Virus record (IMG/VR): IMGVR_UViG_2740892441_000001
Length of the DNA: 64,000 nucleotides
Source of the DNA: a virus
Taxonomy: Duplodnaviria; Heunggongvirae; Uroviricota; Caudoviricetes
Strand: one strand, 5' to 3'
The notes beneath the pieces were generated by a model that searched no databases, was not told the origin of the DNA, and saw only the letters and a program-made list of their open reading frames with translations. Positions 45,620-56,278 of the stretch are shown piece by piece; positions within the stretch are counted from its first letter, which is position 1; each line of letters starts with the position of its first letter. Made by a program: the position numbers and the translations under genes.

Positions 45620-47959
45620 TTAATCTTCTAGTTCTTCTGTTGGTGATGTCTTCTCTCGTCGGTCATCTATCGCCTGTAACGCAGCAATGATTTCAGCCAG
45701 TGGCTTCTCCCGATACATCTCGACGATCTGCGATTTGGTGTATTTCTTGTCACCAATTTCAACTCTCCCGCTGGCGTTCTTTGGCAGGTATCCTTCTTCC
45801 AGCATGTACTCGACGAGCGATTCGATAACGTCGAGGCCACGAGTAGGATCGAAGTAGAATTTCCAGGTGCATTTGCCATACGGTGGTGCAACTTTGTTTT
45901 TGATGCACTCTGCGCCTACGTCCTGACCGATCTTCTCTTTCCCATCCTTCATCACCGATGCACCGAGACGGATGCGCACAGAAGCGTAAAACTTCGGTGA
46001 ATCGCCGCCTGGAGACGTAGTAGGGTCGCCAAACATTACACCGATTTTTGTGCGAACCTGATTCAAGAAGATGATGCAGGCGTTGTATTTGCGTGCCCAC
46101 AAAGCCAGAGTAGGGAAGTTCGCACTCGTCGCACGCGCCAGTGCCGTATTGTCGTTCATGTTTAGCTGATCTTTGTCTTTGGCTGTGCCTTCAGCCATCT
46201 TTTCGAACTTCTCGGCTTTGGAGTTCGGAACCATAGACGCAAGAGAGTCAGCCACGATACAGATAGGTGCTGATTCGGGGATAAGCTCTTCATCACGAAC
46301 CAATTTAAGTATTGTGCCGATCAACTCTACAGAGTCTTCGAAGGTATCTGGCTGCTTGTATACCCACTGACCGTCATCCTCATCTGCATTCAAACCATTG
46401 GCTACAGCCAGGCCAACGTCAAAACTGTTTTCATGATCGAGGAATACCGCCAGACCATCTTGTTTTTGAGCGGAGATCATCGCTGCTGTTGCAAGGAATG
46501 TGTTGTGGCTGATAATCCCGTTAGACCAGAAAGAGTGTGTTTCCGGCATCGCTACGTCGAACGTTGGTGCTTCACCTTCCTCAATAGCCACGACTTCGTC
46601 GTAGAACAAGTTAGAGCCAATTACCGCTGCCAGTTGTGCAAACAGATGCTCGTTAAAACGATTCTTTCTGCCAATGAAGGAGACATAGATTTCTCGCAGT
46701 TTGTCTATTCCGACACGATCGCCGCGGCCAATAACGTGGTCTACCAGAGCGTAGTCTTCACGGGTGGTCTTGGTGAGCGACTCGTAGAGTGATTTCACTA
46801 AGCCGCTGATGTGCGGAACATAGCCTGAGTAAGTGCGGTCAAAACCAATGTCCCGTTTGGTTGCCACTGATAAACGTGCCGGAGATTCGAAACCAATCGT
46901 TGACAGAAAAAGGTCGTAATTAGAGCCACTGAATGACAGCCGGTAATATGTATTTTCATAACCCGCGACGTGTTTTTCAGAGATAGTTGACGTAATCCCC
47001 AGATTCAGGAGCATGAGGCGAATTTGCTGTAGCAGCAGCCCACTCGCGCTCACAACCTCAATGCAGCGACCATCATTGACGTGGCATTCCAGCTCAAAGT
47101 AGCCGCGAAGGAATGCAATTTGAGCCTCGCTATTGGCGCGACGCACACTCAACGGAACCTGCTTGCCAGCAGCTTTCTCATACTCCAGACCATATTCTTT
47201 AAAAAGCAGCGAACGCACCTCTTTGCTAAACAGCACATGGTCTTCCGAGCCGTTATGTTTTCTCGTAACTGGCATCTTGTCTGATACCAGCGAAATGAGG
47301 CGGTAGTACTCATCCTTGATGAAAGGATCTGTGTTAGAAAAATTCACTGAATTTTCAGAGGCCACGTATCCGTCAGCAATTAAATAGCCCATCAGTTTTG
47401 CGATATTGGCATCCAGGTGCTGATCGCCGAATTGATGTGTGCCAACCATTGAAGGAATCGTGTCGCCTACACTGATTTTTTCAGCATGTCGCCAGACGAC
47501 ATTACCTAAGTCGTCAACCACACGGATTGGGTGACGGAACGTAGCCTCGATATAACCGCCTGATGCCAGCTTAATACGCTTGAATTTGCGACGGTTGTTC
47601 CATGTCAGGTGTGAGGTCTTCTCTATCACGCCATTTTCATTGATGAGTCCAACGTTATGCTCTACATCGCGAGTAGTGCATGTCGCTTTGTACCCTTCAA
47701 TCTCAAACAACTCTTTCACTGTTACCATTCCACGCTCCGTCAGCAGCATGGTGTCTGCGGTAACACATTTCCCCGCACTTGGAGGACCGAATACTTCGAC
47801 GATACGACCACATGGGAAACCGCCATCGTAACGACCGGAAATCGCTTTGTTTAACGGAGGAAAGCCTGTGTCAATCCAATGAGTTACTTTCTGAATTTCG
47901 TCGTTGCTACCGATTTTCTTTTTCAGAGCAAGTGCCAGTGCGGATTTTCCTTTTGCCAT
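45620..47959 (-). CDS. recA: RecA-like recombinase interrupted by an in-frame intein
   Basis: Exteins give GPPSAGK|TFLAT (Walker A) and a RecA-like C-terminal core (IFLNQVRTKIGVMFGDPTTSPGG..KFYASVRIRL); about 357 aa without the intein. Confidence 0.8.
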   Translation of the reverse strand: MAKGKSALALALKKKIGSNDEIQKVTHWIDTGFPPLNKAISGRYDGGFPCGRIVEVFGPPSAGKCVTADTMLLTERGMVTVKELFEIEGYKATCTTRDVEHNVGLINENGVIEKTSHLTWNNRRKFKRIKLASGGYIEATFRHPIRVVDDLGNVVWRHAEKISVGDTIPSMVGTHQFGDQHLDANIAKLMGYLIADGYVASENSVNFSNTDPFIKDEYYRLISLVSDKMPVTRKHNGSEDHVLFSKEVRSLLFKEYGLEYEKAAGKQVPLSVRRANSEAQIAFLRGYFELECHVNDGRCIEVVSASGLLLQQIRLMLLNLGITSTISEKHVAGYENTYYRLSFSGSNYDLFLSTIGFESPARLSVATKRDIGFDRTYSGYVPHISGLVKSLYESLTKTTREDYALVDHVIGRGDRVGIDKLREIYVSFIGRKNRFNEHLFAQLAAVIGSNLFYDEVVAIEEGEAPTFDVAMPETHSFWSNGIISHNTFLATAAMISAQKQDGLAVFLDHENSFDVGLAVANGLNADEDDGQWVYKQPDTFEDSVELIGTILKLVRDEELIPESAPICIVADSLASMVPNSKAEKFEKMAEGTAKDKDQLNMNDNTALARATSANFPTLALWARKYNACIIFLNQVRTKIGVMFGDPTTSPGGDSPKFYASVRIRLGASVMKDGKEKIGQDVGAECIKNKVAPPYGKCTWKFYFDPTRGLDVIESLVEYMLEEGYLPKNASGRVEIGDKKYTKSQIVEMYREKPLAEIIAALQAIDDRREKTSPTEELED
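46502..47767 (-). mobile_element. intein with LAGLIDADG homing-endonuclease domain inserted in the RecA P-loop
   Basis: Begins with Cys after GPPSAGK, ends ...SHN before Thr; LAGLIDADG-like blocks LMGYLIADGYV and FLRGYFELECHV; 422 aa. Confidence 0.7.
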
Positions 47960-47961
47960 GA

Positions 47962-48234
47962 TCAGGCTCCTTTTGTTTCGTTGATTCGTTTTAAAGCGGC
48001 GGATTCGTCGAATACAATCGCATCGTGGTTAAGGAGTCTGGATACACGAGCGAGGATTTTTACGACCTGCTCGCTGACTAATCCAAACTCGCGATCTGTC
48101 GCTTTCATTCCGGCAGCGCCTAGAATTGACGGCAGTGCGATGACAGCGTACTCACCGTGATAAAAGACAATCTCTTTTGCCAGTTGGGCAGGGGTGGTTG
48201 TAGCGCCATTAATAATCGATTTAAGCATTAGCAA
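47962..48234 (-). CDS. hypothetical protein
   Basis: 90 aa ORF. Confidence 0.45.
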   Translation of the reverse strand: MLMLKSIINGATTTPAQLAKEIVFYHGEYAVIALPSILGAAGMKATDREFGLVSEQVVKILARVSRLLNHDAIVFDESAALKRINETKGA

Positions 48235-50809: not shown

Positions 50810-51017
50810 TCTAATAGGTTCCTACTTATAAAATCTGTATCAATTATATCAAACAGAGAACGGGTTTATGGCGTCATGTCAACTTTGTTCAGGGGAAGAT
50901 ATTGAGATCACCGAAGATAATTAGTTGTCTTATTTTGGTAAGCTGTGCTGACCATCTTTAGGTCACATACATGAGATGGATGGGGGTGTGGCATGAACGG
51001 ATGAAATTCAGTCGCCG

Positions 51018-51046
51018 TTGACAGATGTCAACACTGTGAATAGAAT
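51018..51046 (+). promoter_or_regulatory. sigma70-type promoter (TTGACA-17-TAGAAT) with overlapping palindrome GTTGACA-GAT-GTCAAC
   Basis: Consensus-like -35/-10 with 17-nt spacer; inverted repeat across the -35 suggests autoregulation. Confidence 0.55.
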
Positions 51047-51063
51047 ACTATTATCGGAGGCGA

Positions 51064-51288
51064 ATGAAGCAACATCCGAATAAGCATATTCAAGCAGCCA
51101 TTGACTATGCATTAAGTAAAGGCTGGATCTGGGTAGCAGCTGGTGGTGCTGCACATTGTTTTTGCAGACTGCGATGCGGTAATCCAGAAGGTGAACACAA
51201 AACTCACCAAATGAGCGTATGGTCGACTCCGGGTAATCCCGAAAACCATGCCAAACAGATCAAACGAATGGTTGATCGTTGTAAATGA
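51064..51288 (+). CDS. HicA-like toxin (tentative)
   Basis: 74 aa; KGWIWV..GGAAHCF...STPGNPENH...QIKRMV loosely follows the HicA pattern; GGAGG RBS. Confidence 0.35.
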   Translation: MKQHPNKHIQAAIDYALSKGWIWVAAGGAAHCFCRLRCGNPEGEHKTHQMSVWSTPGNPENHAKQIKRMVDRCK

Positions 51289-51348
51289 TTTCAAGGCGGC
51301 ATTAGCCGCCTTTTGCAGAAACTGTCCAACTATCTTCAAAGGAAAACT

Positions 51349-51912
51349 ATGGCGCTTTATAACTTCACTCTGACGCTCTCAGGCGTATCGTATGAGACGG
51401 AAGGACTGGAAGACGCGCTGTACCAAAACGGCTGTGACGATGCGCTAATTTGCGCATATGGAAACTCCGTCTATGTAGAATTTGACCGCGAAGCACAATC
51501 ACTTGATGCAGCTATCGCATCTGCGGTCGACAATATTGAATCAGCCGGTATCGGTGCAATTGTTGAATCCGTCGACTCGGCTCTTGTGGGCTTAAGCGAT
51601 ATCGCGGAACTGACAGACCTGTCTCGCCAGGCAGTGGCGTTGCTCAAAGACGGTAAGCGCGGAAGCGGCGACTTCCCTTGCCCTGTACAACGCATAAAAG
51701 GCCAGTCTCCTCTCTGGGATTGGGCTGATGTGGCTGAATGGCTCATGAATAACGGACGACTTAAAGAGGGCGATCAAATTGTCCAAAATGCCCGAACTTT
51801 GAGTAAATGGAATCTGGCGCTTCGAAACAGCGTCTCGAAAGATTTCAACGAAATAGAGCAAATTGCGGAGAAACTGATTAAACGCCGCAAAGATATTGCG
51901 AAATGCGCATAA
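51349..51912 (+). CDS. HicB-like antitoxin with C-terminal HTH (tentative)
   Basis: Start set at ATG after AAAGGAAAA RBS; C-terminal LSDIAELTDLSRQAVALLKDGKRG..WDWADVAEWL helix-turn-helix-like. Confidence 0.35.
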   Translation: MALYNFTLTLSGVSYETEGLEDALYQNGCDDALICAYGNSVYVEFDREAQSLDAAIASAVDNIESAGIGAIVESVDSALVGLSDIAELTDLSRQAVALLKDGKRGSGDFPCPVQRIKGQSPLWDWADVAEWLMNNGRLKEGDQIVQNARTLSKWNLALRNSVSKDFNEIEQIAEKLIKRRKDIAKCA

Positions 51913-51913
51913 T

Positions 51914-51945
51914 GATGCCCGCCAATTGGCGGGCATCTGTTCTCT
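51914..51945 (+). terminator. hairpin GATGCCCGCC-AATT-GGCGGGCATC after the two-gene cassette
   Basis: 10-bp GC-rich stem; weak T-tail. Confidence 0.4.
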
Positions 51946-52241
51946 GTAAAGGTGTCTGGCATCGTCTGGTTCGTTAACGTTTACTAAACCAATGGTGACA
52001 AAAATTAGTTATCTTTGAAAAATAAAGGTTGCATGAAAAGAAGGGGTATGCGTTAATAGCATCGTTGGTTTGCAATACAGACCTTATGTAAGCAGTTTTA
52101 GTAAAGCAGTCTCAGTTCAGTGTTATCTTCTGATTTCCCTTCTTCGTGAGTCTCCTCCTTAAGTGCCTAAGTAAGTCCCAATCTATACAGATCAAATTCT
52201 CGCCGCACTATGTGGCTCACAAAATTAAGAAGGTAATATCT

Positions 52242-52457
52242 ATGTCTAATAAAATGACTGGTTTAGTAAAATGGTTTAACTCTGATAAAGGCTTTGGCTT
52301 TATTTCTCCTGCTGATGGCAGTAAAGATGTTTTTGTACATTTTTCGGCAATTCAGAGTAATAATTTCCGCACTTTGGAAGAAGGCCAGCAGGTCGAATTC
52401 TCTATCGAGAATGGGGCTAAAGGCCCAGCAGCAGCAAATGTCGTTGCTCTAAGTTGA
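52242..52457 (+). CDS. cspA: cold-shock protein, CspA family
   Basis: [38 protein letters not shown]...[10 protein letters not shown] matches CspA-family proteins; long ORF-free leader upstream. Confidence 0.8.
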
Positions 52458-52733
52458 TTCAACGCTGATGATCCTCATTTCTACAATAACGAAGACGGTG
52501 TAAGCCTGAGTGGATAGATTTGTAGGATTGTACAAGTTGAATAAATTAGCATGGTAAGGCCATGCTAATTAAATCGACACAACGGCCAGTTTATTCCATA
52601 AAAGTGAATTGCCCATTGTGGCGAAATGCGGGGTTGCCGCATGAATAGTCAAAGGCAGAAGCTAACTGCCGGCATGGCAAAACAAAGTGCGTAAGAGGAG
52701 TGACTTCCTCAACAAGCGTCATAATTCTTTATA

Positions 52734-52760: not shown

Positions 52761-55700
52761 TTACTTATTTATTGTCTCCGCGATATCAGCCAGAATGGCC
52801 TCCAGTCGCTCTCCTTCTTCCGGTCGGAAGTACAGGATATTCGGGTTAAATCCGTAGAAGACGGTTGCATCAAGCTCTGGGAAGTACTCCTTACGACCAA
52901 TCAGATCTGATGGTTTACTCTTATTGTTAAATAGTGCGGTTGAACGACTACCACACGTCAAAATGTAGGTCGGACGCACCAGATTGATCTCTTCACGCAT
53001 AAAGTCGGTGAACTGGCCGATCTCGTCTTTGGTGTAGTCTTTTTCTTTGTCTTTAACCTTCTTGCAAACGCCTGTGACATAGAGATCGCCCATGCGTAAA
53101 TCTCCAGCCGTCAATAGCTTGGCCTTAAAGTCGTCGTATCCGTTCTCCATGAAGTAACCGGTTCGAGCATCATTGCCGTTCGCATTGTCCAGAATGATCA
53201 TGATTTTCGGCTTAATACCAATGCTGGGGCGGATTAGTTCATCACCTAAGCCCATTTCAGCCGCCATCCGTGTCATGAGCACGTTAATCTCAGCCGAACG
53301 TTTGGGGTTCATCTCAAACGGACGTGAGGCTTTAACTGCGTCTATGACAAGGTTTCCCATCAATTCAGCCTGGTCGCGTAGGCGCTCTGGATCAGTTGCT
53401 GGCAGACTACCTGGCTCGATGGATGCAAACGCCCCTACTTTTTGCAGCGATTCGCGCACTCGACTATTACAGGCACGTTTCTCGACAGCTTCTTCGAATT
53501 GCGCCAGTGACTCGAATTTGCCGCCAACTTTTTCTCGCGCTCTCATGATGGCTTGGCAGCCATTCTCAGAACACCCCTTCACAGCAGAGAAGGGCGCATA
53601 CAGCACCTGGCTGCCATCTTCAAGCGTGCGGATCTCGATTCGGTTAGATGACACGTTAACGTCTGGTGGCAATACGCGAATACCATAGGTCAGCGCATCT
53701 TTAACCAGCCCCTGGTGTTTATCTTCGCCAAGAATAGTGAGAGCAGCAGCGAAAAACTCTGCGGGATAATGAGTTTTCAACCACATAGATTGATAACTGA
53801 TTAAGGAGTAGGCAACAGAGTGTGATTTATTGAACTGGTAGGCACCATTTTTTTCGAATGCGGTCCAGATCTCCTTCGCTTTCATCTCTGATAGCCCTGG
53901 ATGTGACGCTGTAACGCGTACTGCGTTTATAGGTAGTTTTGCGCCGTGCTCAAGTGCCTCTTCGACAGTTTTCAGAGTTCCGTCTTCGCATTTAAAATGT
54001 TCCGCACGGTGAATGCGCTGTGTAGTGCCATCTTCCAGCTCAACGTCTATCCAGCCAGCTTGAGCCTGAACGATGAACTTCTCGCCCATGCTCTTCATTT
54101 TTTCCATGTTCTTCTTACCGATTGCGGAACGCACACCGTCAGCTTCAGCCATTGTGAAGCCGGCAAGCAATCGAGTCGCGTTCATCGTCTGTTCCTGATA
54201 GAGAATCACGCCATTTGTTTCCGCGGTAAGTTCATCAAGAACGGGGTGTAATGATTCCGGCGTCATAAAGCCTTTGGCGACAGAAACATAGTCGTCCAAC
54301 ATGCCGGATTGGATCGGGCCAGGTCGGAAGAGTGCGGTCGTGGCGACAACGGTTTTAAAGCTCATTGGCTCAATGCCACCGCCTAGATCTTTAAGCAGCT
54401 TGCGCATGGGGCCGGACTCCAGCTGGAATACGCCCTGTGTATACCCTGCAGCAAAACCATCCAGCACCTTGCGATCTTCAAGAGAAATGGCATCAAGATT
54501 GATATCTTCACCTGTGTTCTCTTTTATGTAGCGTTTTGCACTATCGAGCAAATCGAGAGTTGCCAGGCCAAGCACGTCCAGCTTAATTAGGCCCATAGCC
54601 TCGCAGTAACGCTTGTCAAATGCGATACAACGCGCGTCACCACGGCGCTCAACCGGTGTACGTTCTGTCAGAGGAACACCTGCTACAATCATCCCTGCCG
54701 CATGTCTACCAAAGCCACGCATAAGGCTTTGTAACTTGCAGGCTGCATTGAATGCATCAGGATATTTTGTTGCGTATTTGTCGAGACTTGCCAGTTGTTC
54801 GCGCAGCTCTTCCAATGGAAGGCTATCATCCTCGACGTTCTTCAGTTCTTTTGATACCGCCATATCTGCGGACTCCACACCATAAATACGAGCGGTGTCA
54901 CGTAGTGCAGAGCTGCGCCCAGGTAGGTGAAGTTCGGAATGCCTGCAACGTAATCTTCGCCGTAGCGTTCATTCAGATACTCGATCACCTCATGGCGACG
55001 TGCCTGGCTGAAGTCCAAGTCCGCATCCGGCAAGTCGAGACGCTCAGGGTTGATGAAACGCTCAAACAGAAGACCGTGACGGATTGGGTCGACGTTGGTT
55101 ATGCCTATGCACCACGCCACCAGAGAACCGGCAGAGGAACCACGACCAGGCCCGACAGGAATGCCAGTTTCACGGCTGTGATTCATCAGATCGCGTACCA
55201 TCAGGAAGTAACCACAAAATCCCAGGCGAGTCAGCGTGTTCATTTCGTACTTTAGCCGCTCAACATAAACCCTGTTCTCAGAAGCAGGTGGTGTGTATCC
55301 AAACTCTTTTGTGGTAAGACGTTTACGCAGCCCTGCAACAGCCAGTTTCATCAGCGTTGCAGGTTCGTCGTCTGCCATCTTGGGCAGTGCTGGTGGCAAT
55401 TCATGCCAGCGCCATGTGCAGGCATCGATAATGGAGTCCTGCGTTGTTGAGGCCATTGCAGCTGTTACCGGCACATCCATGCGAACGGAGAAGGCTTTAA
55501 GCGCCTCAAGGAGATGGCGACGACCATTGATGGCGTTATCTCGCTGGTGGGGGATACGCAGACGATGCGGCTGGTCGATTTTTATGTTGTTCGTAACCAT
55601 GTGCGCAATGTCTTTAATGTCTGCATCGTCGATCGATTCGTAATAAGCGGGATAGAACGCTACTGGCTCTATTTTCAGTGCGCTGGCTACTTTCATCGCT

Positions 55701-56278
55701 CGGACGTTAATCTGGTCGTAGAATGGGGTAGGGTGCGGATAAACCACGCTATAGAAGTTGTCTTTCCCGCCCGCTGTAATCAGTGAGCTTATGATTTTTG
55801 CAAAATCGTTGCGTTGGAACACGCTACCGATGTCGGAAGTGAGCAGGATGATGTTGCCTTTGGCATATGTAGAAACCAACTGTTCGAGCGAGAGACGCGG
55901 TACAAAGTAGAACTGTTCTCGTGTGTTGGCCACCGTCATTAGTTCGCAGATGTCGCGATATCCTTGCTCATTTTTAATTAGAGCGGTAAACGAGTAGTTA
56001 CGTCCCCGCTCTAATGATTCCATACATCTCATAGATTCTTTAGCAAGTTTAGCCCGGTGCTCGTATGTGGGATCATCAACGATATTTAGTTTCACACCAC
56101 AAATAACCGCCATGTCGTCACCAGCGGCACGTTGTAGTGGAATAACACTCGCAATATTCATGCTATCTGCTGAAATTACAGCGGTGTAGCCAGCTTCTCT
56201 GGCAATCTTCACCGCGTTTTCTGCTTTTAGAGCCGACTCCCCAAGTGAGAAGTCAGTTCGAACCATCAGTGCTTTCAT
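52761..56278 (-). CDS. dnaE: DNA polymerase III alpha-like (DnaE-type) polymerase, apparent frameshift near 54842-54878
   Basis: N-terminal ORF has PHP domain and GIPVGPGRGSSAGSLVAW..DPIRHGLLFERFINPER; C-terminal ORF has GLIKLDVLGLATL, GVFQLESGPM, FNKSHSVAYSLISYQSMWLKTHYPAEF. Confidence 0.8.

Follow-up and report, generated by a model that had tools for sequence, protein, structure and literature searches.

The two-gene cassette analyzed here is most probably (at roughly 55%) an autonomous, autorepressed operon of the type II toxin-antitoxin (TA) kind, which belongs to an uncharacterized protein family and represents the same gene pair as the PADLOC candidate PDC-M06. It is carried by a 64-kb stretch of DNA (64,000 nucleotides, hereafter the window) that displayed around 98% identity to Escherichia phage Cyrano (pLF82), the phage type being an SSU5-type phage-plasmid. 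The cassette lies on the plus strand and is flanked by minus-strand replication and recombination genes on both sides. The original prediction had described a self-contained plus-strand operon placed in opposite orientation among replication genes, and this description held, since a promoter, an operator and a terminator belonging to the cassette were all found; every element that it named was recovered exactly where it had been placed. The elements of the locus are the following:

51017-51032, no strand assigned: predicted operator dyad GTTGAC-agat-GTCAAC, read from the sequence
51018-51046, plus strand: sigma-70 promoter TTGACA-17-TAGAAT (-35 at 51018-51023, -10 at 51041-51046), predicted by promoter scan
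51056-51060, plus strand: Shine-Dalgarno GGAGG of ORF1, read from the sequence
51064-51288, plus strand: ORF1, 74 aa, putative toxin/effector, matching PADLOC PDC-M06A and phrog_5923
51293-51312, plus strand: GC hairpin between the two genes, AAGGCGGC-atta-GCCGCCTT with TT after it (-15.8 kcal/mol, z -3.3)
51340-51343, plus strand: Shine-Dalgarno AGGA of ORF2, read from the sequence
51349-51912, plus strand: ORF2, 187 aa, putative antitoxin/autorepressor, matching PADLOC PDC-M06B and phrog_2620
51349-51579, plus strand: N-terminal ferredoxin-like domain of ORF2 (aa 1-77), putative ORF1-binding domain
51583-51753, plus strand: divergent winged helix-turn-helix (HTH) of ORF2 (aa about 79-135), with PHROG matches of the excisionase/AlpA type
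51775-51906, plus strand: C-terminal helical hairpin of ORF2 (aa 143-186), present only in the enterobacterial type of roughly 185 aa
51914-51937, plus strand: intrinsic terminator, with the hairpin GATGCCCGCC-aatt-GGCGGGCATC (-21.8 kcal/mol, z -6.6) and a T-rich tail after it
Flanking genes, minus strand: 5'-3' exonuclease, gp32-like SSB, UvsY (Cyrano annotation) and DNA polymerase III alpha

Thus, the 74-aa and 187-aa proteins anticipated for the first and second genes, as well as the hairpin after the latter, were all identified. Gene pair, dyad and promoter register are kept across dozens of species, which indicates that the cassette is more than a chance arrangement. GC content gave no sign of a recent foreign origin of the cassette, and the Rfam scan detected no known RNA within it. 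The flanking gene that owes the name UvsY to the Cyrano record had no Pfam match in the window.

HicA and HicB are the labels of the cassette genes in the GenBank record of phage Cyrano, and the original prediction had likewise assigned the pair to a HicAB module. This assignment was not supported by Pfam, NCBIfam, hhalign, Foldseek or the fold of the ORF2 N-terminal domain. The Pfam comparison that had been proposed to settle the matter returned neither HicA_toxin nor HicB for the proteins of the window, and the same was true of NCBIfam (E up to 10). Neither family appeared in 90 diverse relatives of ORF1 or 28 diverse relatives of ORF2 (E up to 1), in a resource where true HicA proteins do carry PF07927. 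With hhalign, the ORF1 alignments A3 and A1 gave co-linear matches to HicA at probabilities of 9 and 2.5%, respectively, the target alignment consisting of five solved HicAs with their relatives and the HicA profiles being shallow. A single match of 21 columns, non-colinear, was obtained against the E. coli HicA subfamily (73%); as the profile of this subfamily misses the other solved HicAs, the alignment was rebuilt from PDB sequences. The succession of helix, GW, strand, G-x-S-x-H and strand that had been read as a HicA pattern is really present in ORF1 but lacks statistical support. The catalytic His of HicA does not vary within the HicA alignment; in the solved chains from B. pseudomallei its place is taken by Ala, presumably an inactivating H24A substitution. 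H31 of ORF1 falls one residue away from this His, in an hhalign register that is itself not significant.

The cassette resembles HicAB in that a small toxin-like gene comes first and a partner with a DNA-binding domain second, this domain being C-terminal to the putative toxin-binding domain as in HicB-type antitoxins. It also resembles HicAB in the putative alpha-beta-beta-beta-alpha topology of ORF1, with a conserved His preceding strand 2, and in the palindrome over the promoter, which implies autoregulation. In contrast, neither protein matched HicA or HicB by sequence or by profile, the invariant set of putative His/Cys metal ligands of ORF1 is absent from solved HicAs, the HTH of ORF2 is of the winged AlpA/excisionase type, and its N-terminal domain is ferredoxin-like instead of presenting the HicB-type (partial RNase H-like) fold. 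A genuine, highly divergent HicAB pair, with ORF1 as HicA mRNA interferase and ORF2 as HicB antitoxin, would suit the Cyrano names, the toxin-first order and the location of the ORF1 His, comparable to that of the HicA G-S-H motif; nevertheless, against the profile, structural and metal-ligand results just described we consider it very unlikely, and the names seen in NCBI, UniRef and other sources were "hypothetical protein" and "DNA-binding protein." HicA/HicB is the sole functional label in circulation for these genes (in the Cyrano record and paper), and correcting it stops the spread of a wrong annotation.

ORF1 is a small protein characterized by a conserved cluster of His and Cys residues. 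Among 90 relatives, H4 was found in all, H31 in 86, and C38 and C73 in 88 each, whereas position 48 was occupied by Cys in 76 and by His in 11. This pattern of conservation suggests that the cluster probably constitutes a structural metal (Zn) site. H31 belongs to the G-x-S-x-H motif and is located directly ahead of strand 2. Pfam and NCBIfam scans of ORF1 and ORF2 gave chance-level matches alone (RuBisCO_small, CagE, mycosin), PDB sequence searches with the family profiles gave chance matches alone, such as lectins, and Foldseek against the PDB retrieved nothing, HicA included. Some relatives are annotated as long ORF1 fusions (125-183 aa); we rejected these as likely mis-called starts in high-GC genomes, because they show low-complexity N-terminal extensions and an internal Met ahead of the conserved domain.

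The start of ORF2 was placed at the ATG at 51349, from which homologues align, and the upstream TTG at 51313 was discarded. The N-terminal domain follows a beta-alpha-beta-beta-alpha-beta order and is the portion conserved in all partners of ORF1. A C-terminal HTH had been claimed for this protein: the HTH is indeed present, but its position is central (aa about 79-135) and a helical hairpin comes after it. Its helices are predicted at residues 82-89, 93-98, and 125-134 in the structural model, and the recognition helix carries S-R-Q-A (aa 92-95). Weak, sub-threshold Pfam matches to HTH_3 and to Phage_AlpA were each obtained in 7 of 28 members of the ORF2 family. As general domain types, the combination of a DNA-binding domain with a ferredoxin-like RAM/ACT domain is that of Lrp/AsnC and NikR, from which ORF2 differs in the reversed order of the domains and in the absence of sequence similarity; the "ligand" of ORF2 would presumably be the ORF1 protein and not a small molecule.

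A relative of ORF2 was located directly downstream of ORF1 and on the same strand in every locus with room for it (87 fetched loci plus the window, which share ancestry and hence do not count as independent events); the sole exception, L085, ends at a contig edge. In many lineages the two genes overlap or lie a few nucleotides apart (for example, a 4-nt overlap ATGA), so that the cassette displays the organization of type II TA systems in general: small, adjacent, co-directional genes, always paired and often coupled in translation. Partner size varied from about 185 aa through about 150 aa down to 81-88 aa, and the N-terminal domain was always retained, the minimal partner consisting of the ferredoxin-like domain alone. 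Partners without HTH, found in Planctomycetes, Anaerolineae, and Verrucomicrobia, were still strictly paired with ORF1, which indicates that the pair has a core function other than DNA binding. From the strict pairing and from the partners formed by this domain alone, we infer that the N-terminal domain of ORF2 neutralizes ORF1.

Three loci (L037, L081, and L084) presented ORF1 with a premature stop or a frameshift beside an intact ORF2, and an intact ORF1 whose partner had lost the N-terminal domain did not occur at any locus of the set examined. The partner in L067 is a short form of 113 aa, the same as in its sister locus L049, where ORF1 is intact. The ORF1 pseudogenes next to intact ORF2 are the one indirect hint of growth arrest or mRNA interferase activity by this protein.

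The near-consensus sigma-70 promoter and the palindrome overlapping it, both pointed out beforehand, were confirmed. The promoter scored 11/12, being the top site of the region in the promoter scan, and transcription is predicted to start near position 51053. The dyad, which may alternatively be read as GTTGACA-ga-TGTCAAC, overlaps the -35 hexamer and the spacer, its left arm including the -35 hexamer, and it is the only copy in the 64-kb window even when one mismatch is permitted (chance expectation 0.13). A perfect GTNNAC-N4-GTNNAC dyad was present upstream in 64 of the 75 loci whose partner has an HTH and in none of the nine with an HTH-less partner, counts to which the shared ancestry of the loci also applies; it was not found elsewhere in 972 kb of sequence flanking the loci. 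The -10 element, considered as TAnnnT, kept a constant +17 register relative to the dyad in 63 distinct loci. Moreover, the half-site covaried with the recognition helix (GTTGAC with S-R-Q-A, GTTTAC with S/T-R/K-A-A, and GTAGAC with S-K-K-T). Dyad, register and covariation lend strong comparative support to autoregulation by ORF2, which would act on an operator within the promoter of the cassette. The correspondence between one position of the helix (Q, A or K) and the half-site (G, T or A) offers a ready specificity code to test.

In the LF82 lysogen, published RNA-seq levels of CYRAN_51 and CYRAN_50 were 30x and 14x above the prophage background, respectively (PMC9928086, Table 1), with the mRNA of ORF1 being about twice as abundant as that of ORF2 (PMC9928086). 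This excess runs opposite to the excess of antitoxin usually expected, and counts against the TA model. Cyrano shows TGAGG where the window has the GGAGG Shine-Dalgarno of ORF1. The intercistronic hairpin, which did not figure in the original prediction, resembles an intrinsic terminator in many loci; by eye, a stem of differing sequence occupied the same place in about 30 of the approximately 33 loci with a spacer longer than 45 nt. It is possibly an attenuator or a stabilizer of the mRNA 3' end.

These transcript levels and the attenuator-like hairpin between the genes, together with the regulator annotations given to ORF2 (DNA-binding, AlpA or excisionase type), would also fit a non-toxic regulatory pair, in which ORF2 acts as a transcription factor on phage-plasmid or host genes and ORF1 as a small metal-binding cofactor or modulator. 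We regard this as unlikely. The sole operator in the window is that of the cassette itself, the HTH-less partners remain strictly paired with ORF1, and it is ORF1 that decays while ORF2 persists. Furthermore, the cassette moves as a unit among unrelated contexts, including accessory slots of P4 and P2 elements beside known TA modules: it was found in a P4-like island adjoining another TA module and in a P2-like prophage adjoining YoeB/Phd, as well as isolated among housekeeping genes elsewhere.

The TA-like operon that we favor would function as follows. In lysogeny, where expression is known from the RNA-seq data (PMC9928086), the strong sigma-70 promoter would transcribe ORF1 and then ORF2. 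ORF2 would be modular, its N-terminal ferredoxin-like domain binding and neutralizing ORF1, and its winged HTH, with strong comparative support, would sit as a dimer on GTTGAC-N4-GTCAAC, over the -35 and the spacer, leading to self-repression. ORF1 would be a small effector of alpha-beta-beta-beta-alpha topology with a probable Zn site and the conserved H31 where strand 2 begins; once freed from ORF2 it might cause growth arrest, perhaps by binding or cleaving RNA in the manner of HicA. On a low-copy phage-plasmid, such a module may serve for retention of the plasmid-prophage, for abortive-type protection against other phages, or for both. Cyrano also carries KacT-type and RelE/ParE-type modules (PMC9928086), so that a maintenance role may be redundant.

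In HigBA and MqsRA the toxin gene is also upstream, and the antitoxin combines a toxin-binding domain with an HTH that represses via a promoter palindrome. The cassette shares this toxin-first operon logic with an HTH partner; in contrast, no relationship in sequence or fold to RelE-type toxins or XRE-type antitoxins was detected. A more ambitious reading, in which ORF1 and ORF2 found a widespread TA/defense family unrelated to HicAB, comprising a metal-binding effector of new activity, a ferredoxin-like antitoxin fold not described before, and an optional HTH co-evolved with the 16-bp operator, is tentative and falls somewhat short of an even chance. If ORF1 is a toxin, it would represent a new metal-binding effector family, accompanied by a new antitoxin fold.

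With regard to known systems, ORF1 matched six PDC-M06A HMMs of PADLOC (best 1.2e-19) and ORF2 matched PDC-M06B (1.3e-32); both proteins match, adjacent and in the right order, so that the cassette and PDC-M06 are the same gene-pair family. PDC-M06, detected by "guilt by embedding," is one of 145 phage-defense candidates (Payne et al. 2024, bioRxiv 10.1101/2024.01.29.577857); it was derived from gene cassettes lying within BREX, DISARM or type I R-M loci and occurs 497 times (10.1101/2024.01.29.577857). It differs from the description given here in being a bare catalog entry without mechanism or domain description, for which our analysis provides a mechanistic hypothesis. In the literature searched, the Cyrano article and the PADLOC preprint were the sole sources to turn up for the candidate or its genes, and no experiments on the genes beyond expression were encountered.

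The PADLOC matches and the origin of PDC-M06 raise the question of whether the main selected role is anti-phage defense (abortive infection or superinfection exclusion) instead of plasmid maintenance, a role compatible with the TA-like mechanism. The P4-like and P2-like accessory slots and the expression as a lysogeny "moron" point in this direction. However, PDC-M06 is itself a candidate, and neither defense genes nor integrases were enriched near the cassette in 24 diverse chromosomal contexts, where the neighbors were mostly housekeeping genes. In addition, SSU5, Y. pestis pMT1 and Enterobacter phage-plasmids all carry the cassette at the same position, and in SSU5/pMT1 plasmids it belongs to the stable syntenic backbone and not to variable hotspot cargo. 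On balance, defense as the main role seems somewhat unlikely.

The pair is very common, besides being expressed in lysogens. Relatives of ORF1 were found in 379 species and formed 720 clusters at 50% identity, and those of ORF2 were present on 347 plasmids. The exact ORF1 and the exact ORF2 each occurred on at least 1000 contigs, and carriers of the pair include Y. pestis pMT1 and clinical E. coli and Enterobacter phage-plasmids.

The cassette was found at 51017-51945 with all the elements of the original prediction in place, namely the promoter, the palindrome, the two open reading frames and the 3' hairpin:

51017-51032: perfect dyad GTTGAC-agat-GTCAAC, with the -35 inside its left arm
51018-51023 and 51041-51046, plus strand: near-consensus sigma-70 promoter (11/12), TTGACA, 17 nt, TAGAAT
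51064-51288, plus strand: ORF1, 74 aa, with a GGAGG Shine-Dalgarno ahead
51293-51312: second GC hairpin, directly 3' of the ORF1 stop codon (-15.8 kcal/mol, z -3.3)
51349-51912, plus strand: ORF2, 187 aa, with an AGGA Shine-Dalgarno ahead
51914-51937: strong terminator hairpin (-21.8 kcal/mol, z -6.6)

The hairpin at 51293-51312 had not been listed originally. The dyad occurred only once in the 64-kb window, even when one mismatch was allowed. As predicted, the cassette is opposite in strand to its neighbours, which are minus-strand replication and recombination genes (5'-3' exonuclease, gp32-like SSB, UvsY by the annotation of Escherichia phage Cyrano, and DNA polymerase III alpha).

Membership of the HicAB family, which had been proposed for this pair, was not borne out by Pfam, NCBIfam or hhalign. 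Neither HicA_toxin nor HicB, nor any other HicA or HicB family, was listed by Pfam or NCBIfam for ORF1 or ORF2 at E up to 10. At E up to 1, PF07927 was absent from all 90 diverse relatives of ORF1 (drawn from an exhaustive profile search yielding 720 clusters at 50% identity), and no HicB family matched any of 28 diverse ORF2 relatives; PF07927 was present on genuine HicA proteins in the same resource. Alignment of the ORF1 family by hhalign with five solved HicAs and their relatives gave probabilities of 9 and 2.5%, and the sole match to the E. coli HicA subfamily (73%) covered 21 non-colinear columns. In this last match, ORF1 residues 3-13 (51070-51102; RHPNKEIEAAI) echoed PRHPxxEIkepLrkaI of E. 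coli-type HicA, N-terminal in ORF1 and from strand 3 to helix 2 in HicA, which could be a coincidence or a shared motif. The pattern originally noticed in ORF1 (helix, GW, strand, G-x-S-x-H, strand) does exist but had no statistical support. Structural evidence on HicA identity appeared weak and mixed: the AF2 model of ORF1 presented an alpha-beta-beta-beta-alpha topology (pLDDT 88.8), and Foldseek returned no HicA and no significant match. The specific HicAB assignment is not supported by any profile match for the window proteins or for their 90 and 28 relatives. In NCBI and UniRef the exact proteins are named 'hypothetical protein' and 'DNA-binding protein'.

The HicAB label is found in the GenBank record of Cyrano, which is plasmid pLF82, an SSU5-type phage-plasmid of adherent-invasive E. 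coli LF82, ~98% identical to the window and 99.7% identical over the cassette. There, ORF1 is CYRAN_51 ('HicA toxin protein') and ORF2 is CYRAN_50 ('putative antitoxin HicB'), so that the HicAB reading is already published, as an annotation; annotations in that genome were carried over from BLASTP hits or Pfam matches (methods, PMC9928086). Both genes were described as 'morons', transcribed in the lysogen 30-fold (CYRAN_51) and 14-fold (CYRAN_50) over the prophage background (Misson et al. 2023, PMC9928086), which shows that the cassette promoter works in vivo. Our literature search turned up no study testing how the pair functions. One of only three differences between window and Cyrano across the 1.1-kb cassette region lies in the ORF1 Shine-Dalgarno at 51056 (GGAGG vs. 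TGAGG in Cyrano), and could alter the level of ORF1 translation.

Significant matches were obtained instead in PADLOC, to PDC-M06A for ORF1 (1.2e-19) and PDC-M06B for ORF2 (1.3e-32). PDC-M06 (CAS_00046 in the supplement, 497 occurrences) is one of 145 'phage defence candidates', all untested, which were drawn from cassettes located inside BREX, DISARM or type I R-M loci (Payne et al. 2024). In the literature searched, PDC-M06 or the cassette locus tags appeared only in Payne et al. 2024 and Misson et al. 2023. PHROG matches were to family 5923 (unknown function) for ORF1 and 2620 ('excisionase and transcriptional regulator') for ORF2.

Relatives of ORF1 were found in 379 species by scanning one genome per species; 80 of these loci were kept and pooled with loci fetched earlier. 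An ORF2 relative lay directly downstream on the same strand at every locus with room for it (87 fetched plus the window), the sole exception stopping at a contig edge, and in many lineages the two genes overlapped or nearly abutted, e.g., by a 4-nt ATGA. The partner occurred in three sizes: ~185 aa in Enterobacterales, with an N-terminal ferredoxin-like domain, a winged HTH module and a C-terminal helical hairpin; ~150 aa in Acinetobacter, Pasteurellaceae, Neisseria and Moraxella, with the first two only; and 81-88 aa in Planctomycetes, Anaerolineae and, from profile coverage alone, apparently Verrucomicrobia, with the N-terminal domain only. Since the ferredoxin-like domain was always kept, it forms the conserved core together with ORF1; the module for DNA binding is, judging from these forms, optional.

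Of the 75 loci with an HTH-containing partner, loci related by descent and hence not independent events, 64 had a perfect GTNNAC-N4-GTNNAC dyad no more than 110 nt upstream of ORF1; in most of the remaining 11, the right arm of the dyad was altered at one to three positions. None of the nine loci whose partner had no HTH contained the dyad, and the 972 kb of flanking sequence held no further copy. A -10 TAnnnT kept a constant 17-nt spacing from the left-arm TTGACA, and the sequence around the dyad was not conserved. Half-sites varied symmetrically, with a different predicted recognition helix for each: S-R-Q-A for GTTGAC/GTCAAC, S/T-R/K-A-A for GTTTAC/GTAAAC and S-K-K-T for GTAGAC/GTCTAC. Taken together, these comparisons argue strongly that ORF2 would bind the dyad as a dimer and repress its own promoter. 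A pMT1-like contig of Y. pestis NCTC5923 presented a degenerate right arm (GTTGAC-acgc-GCTCAC, ~47 nt upstream of ORF1) with both genes intact; autorepression may be relaxed in Y. pestis pMT1.

Conservation in ORF1, counted over the 90 relatives (32-63% identity), was highest for H4 and P56 (90/90 each), followed by W21 (89), T55, C38 and C73 (88 each), H31 (86) and H62 (72), and position 48 was Cys in 76 and His in 11. Exchange of Cys and His at one site is typical of a metal ligand and not of a disulfide; we therefore infer a putative structural Zn site formed by C38, C/H48, C73 and one His. Solved HicAs, in contrast, have no such Cys set. H31, at the start of strand 2 in the place of the HicA catalytic His, would be the candidate functional residue.

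Several loci offered hints of toxicity. An intact ORF2 stood beside a broken ORF1 in one Reinekea MAG (frameshift) and in two genomes of Providencia (stop at W53 and frameshift); in a Cardiobacteriaceae MAG, ORF1 had a stop at Q65 beside a short, 113-aa partner, a form that accompanied an intact ORF1 in the sister locus. An intact ORF1 whose partner had lost the N-terminal domain was not observed at any locus compared. Both trends, together with the behaviour of the cassette as a small mobile unit, hint at a toxic ORF1. The slot was identical in SSU5, Y. pestis pMT1 and Enterobacter, Citrobacter and Klebsiella phage-plasmids; elsewhere the cassette adjoined a RelE/HTH pair in a P4-like island or YoeB/Phd in a P2-like prophage, or was an isolated insert surrounded by housekeeping genes, ABC transporters among them.

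Immediately behind the ORF1 stop codon, roughly 30 of ~33 loci with an intergenic spacer >45 nt had a GC-rich stem (an informal count by eye); its sequence varied by lineage, and five or six T residues followed in several. It looks like an intrinsic terminator and would lower ORF2 mRNA relative to ORF1 mRNA, in agreement with the published 30- vs. 14-fold values. Such an excess is odd if the second gene encodes an antidote, and the stem may set the ratio of the two, make the ORF1 message more stable or signal that ORF1 needs a further trigger.

A toxin-antitoxin-like reading is plausible and now much better supported on operon logic. The cassette is best described as a type II TA-like module, toxin-first and probably autorepressed, that belongs to an uncharacterised family (PADLOC PDC-M06); the putative toxin would be a small metal-binding protein of HicA-like topology, its partner combines a ferredoxin-like domain with an HTH, and plasmid maintenance or phage defence are candidate roles. 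Its architecture is ordinary, but it is built of new and very widespread components that at present have a wrong label or none.

Close behind the cassette, and on its strand, is a complete cspA-type mRNA (52064-52481; Rfam RF01766 cspA thermoregulator, 189.7 bits, full model), which encodes a 71-aa cold-shock domain protein (52242-52457; Pfam CSD, 1.4e-33), unannotated in Cyrano although its DNA is present. SSU5 and Y. pestis pMT1 have no csp gene in this slot, so that csp resembles a variable 'moron' beside a conserved cassette; in Enterobacter phage-plasmids L006-L008 its place is taken by another variable gene, a plus-strand 214-aa ORF without Pfam match (8930-9574 in L006). DNA polymerase III alpha (52761-56278, minus strand), a single 3507-nt CDS in Cyrano, was split in the window into ORFs of 478 aa (54842-56278) and 705 aa (52761-54878) overlapping by 37 nt in different frames, which could reflect a frameshift, a sequencing error or a pseudogene; in the Enterobacter relatives an HNH endonuclease gene interrupts it. 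Upstream, the RecA-like gene (window ~47000-48200; L006 2548-4890), ~780 aa in Cyrano and the Enterobacter relatives, carries Pfam Intein_splicing and LAGLIDADG_3 domains and is, by its predicted domains, an intein-containing phage-plasmid RecA.
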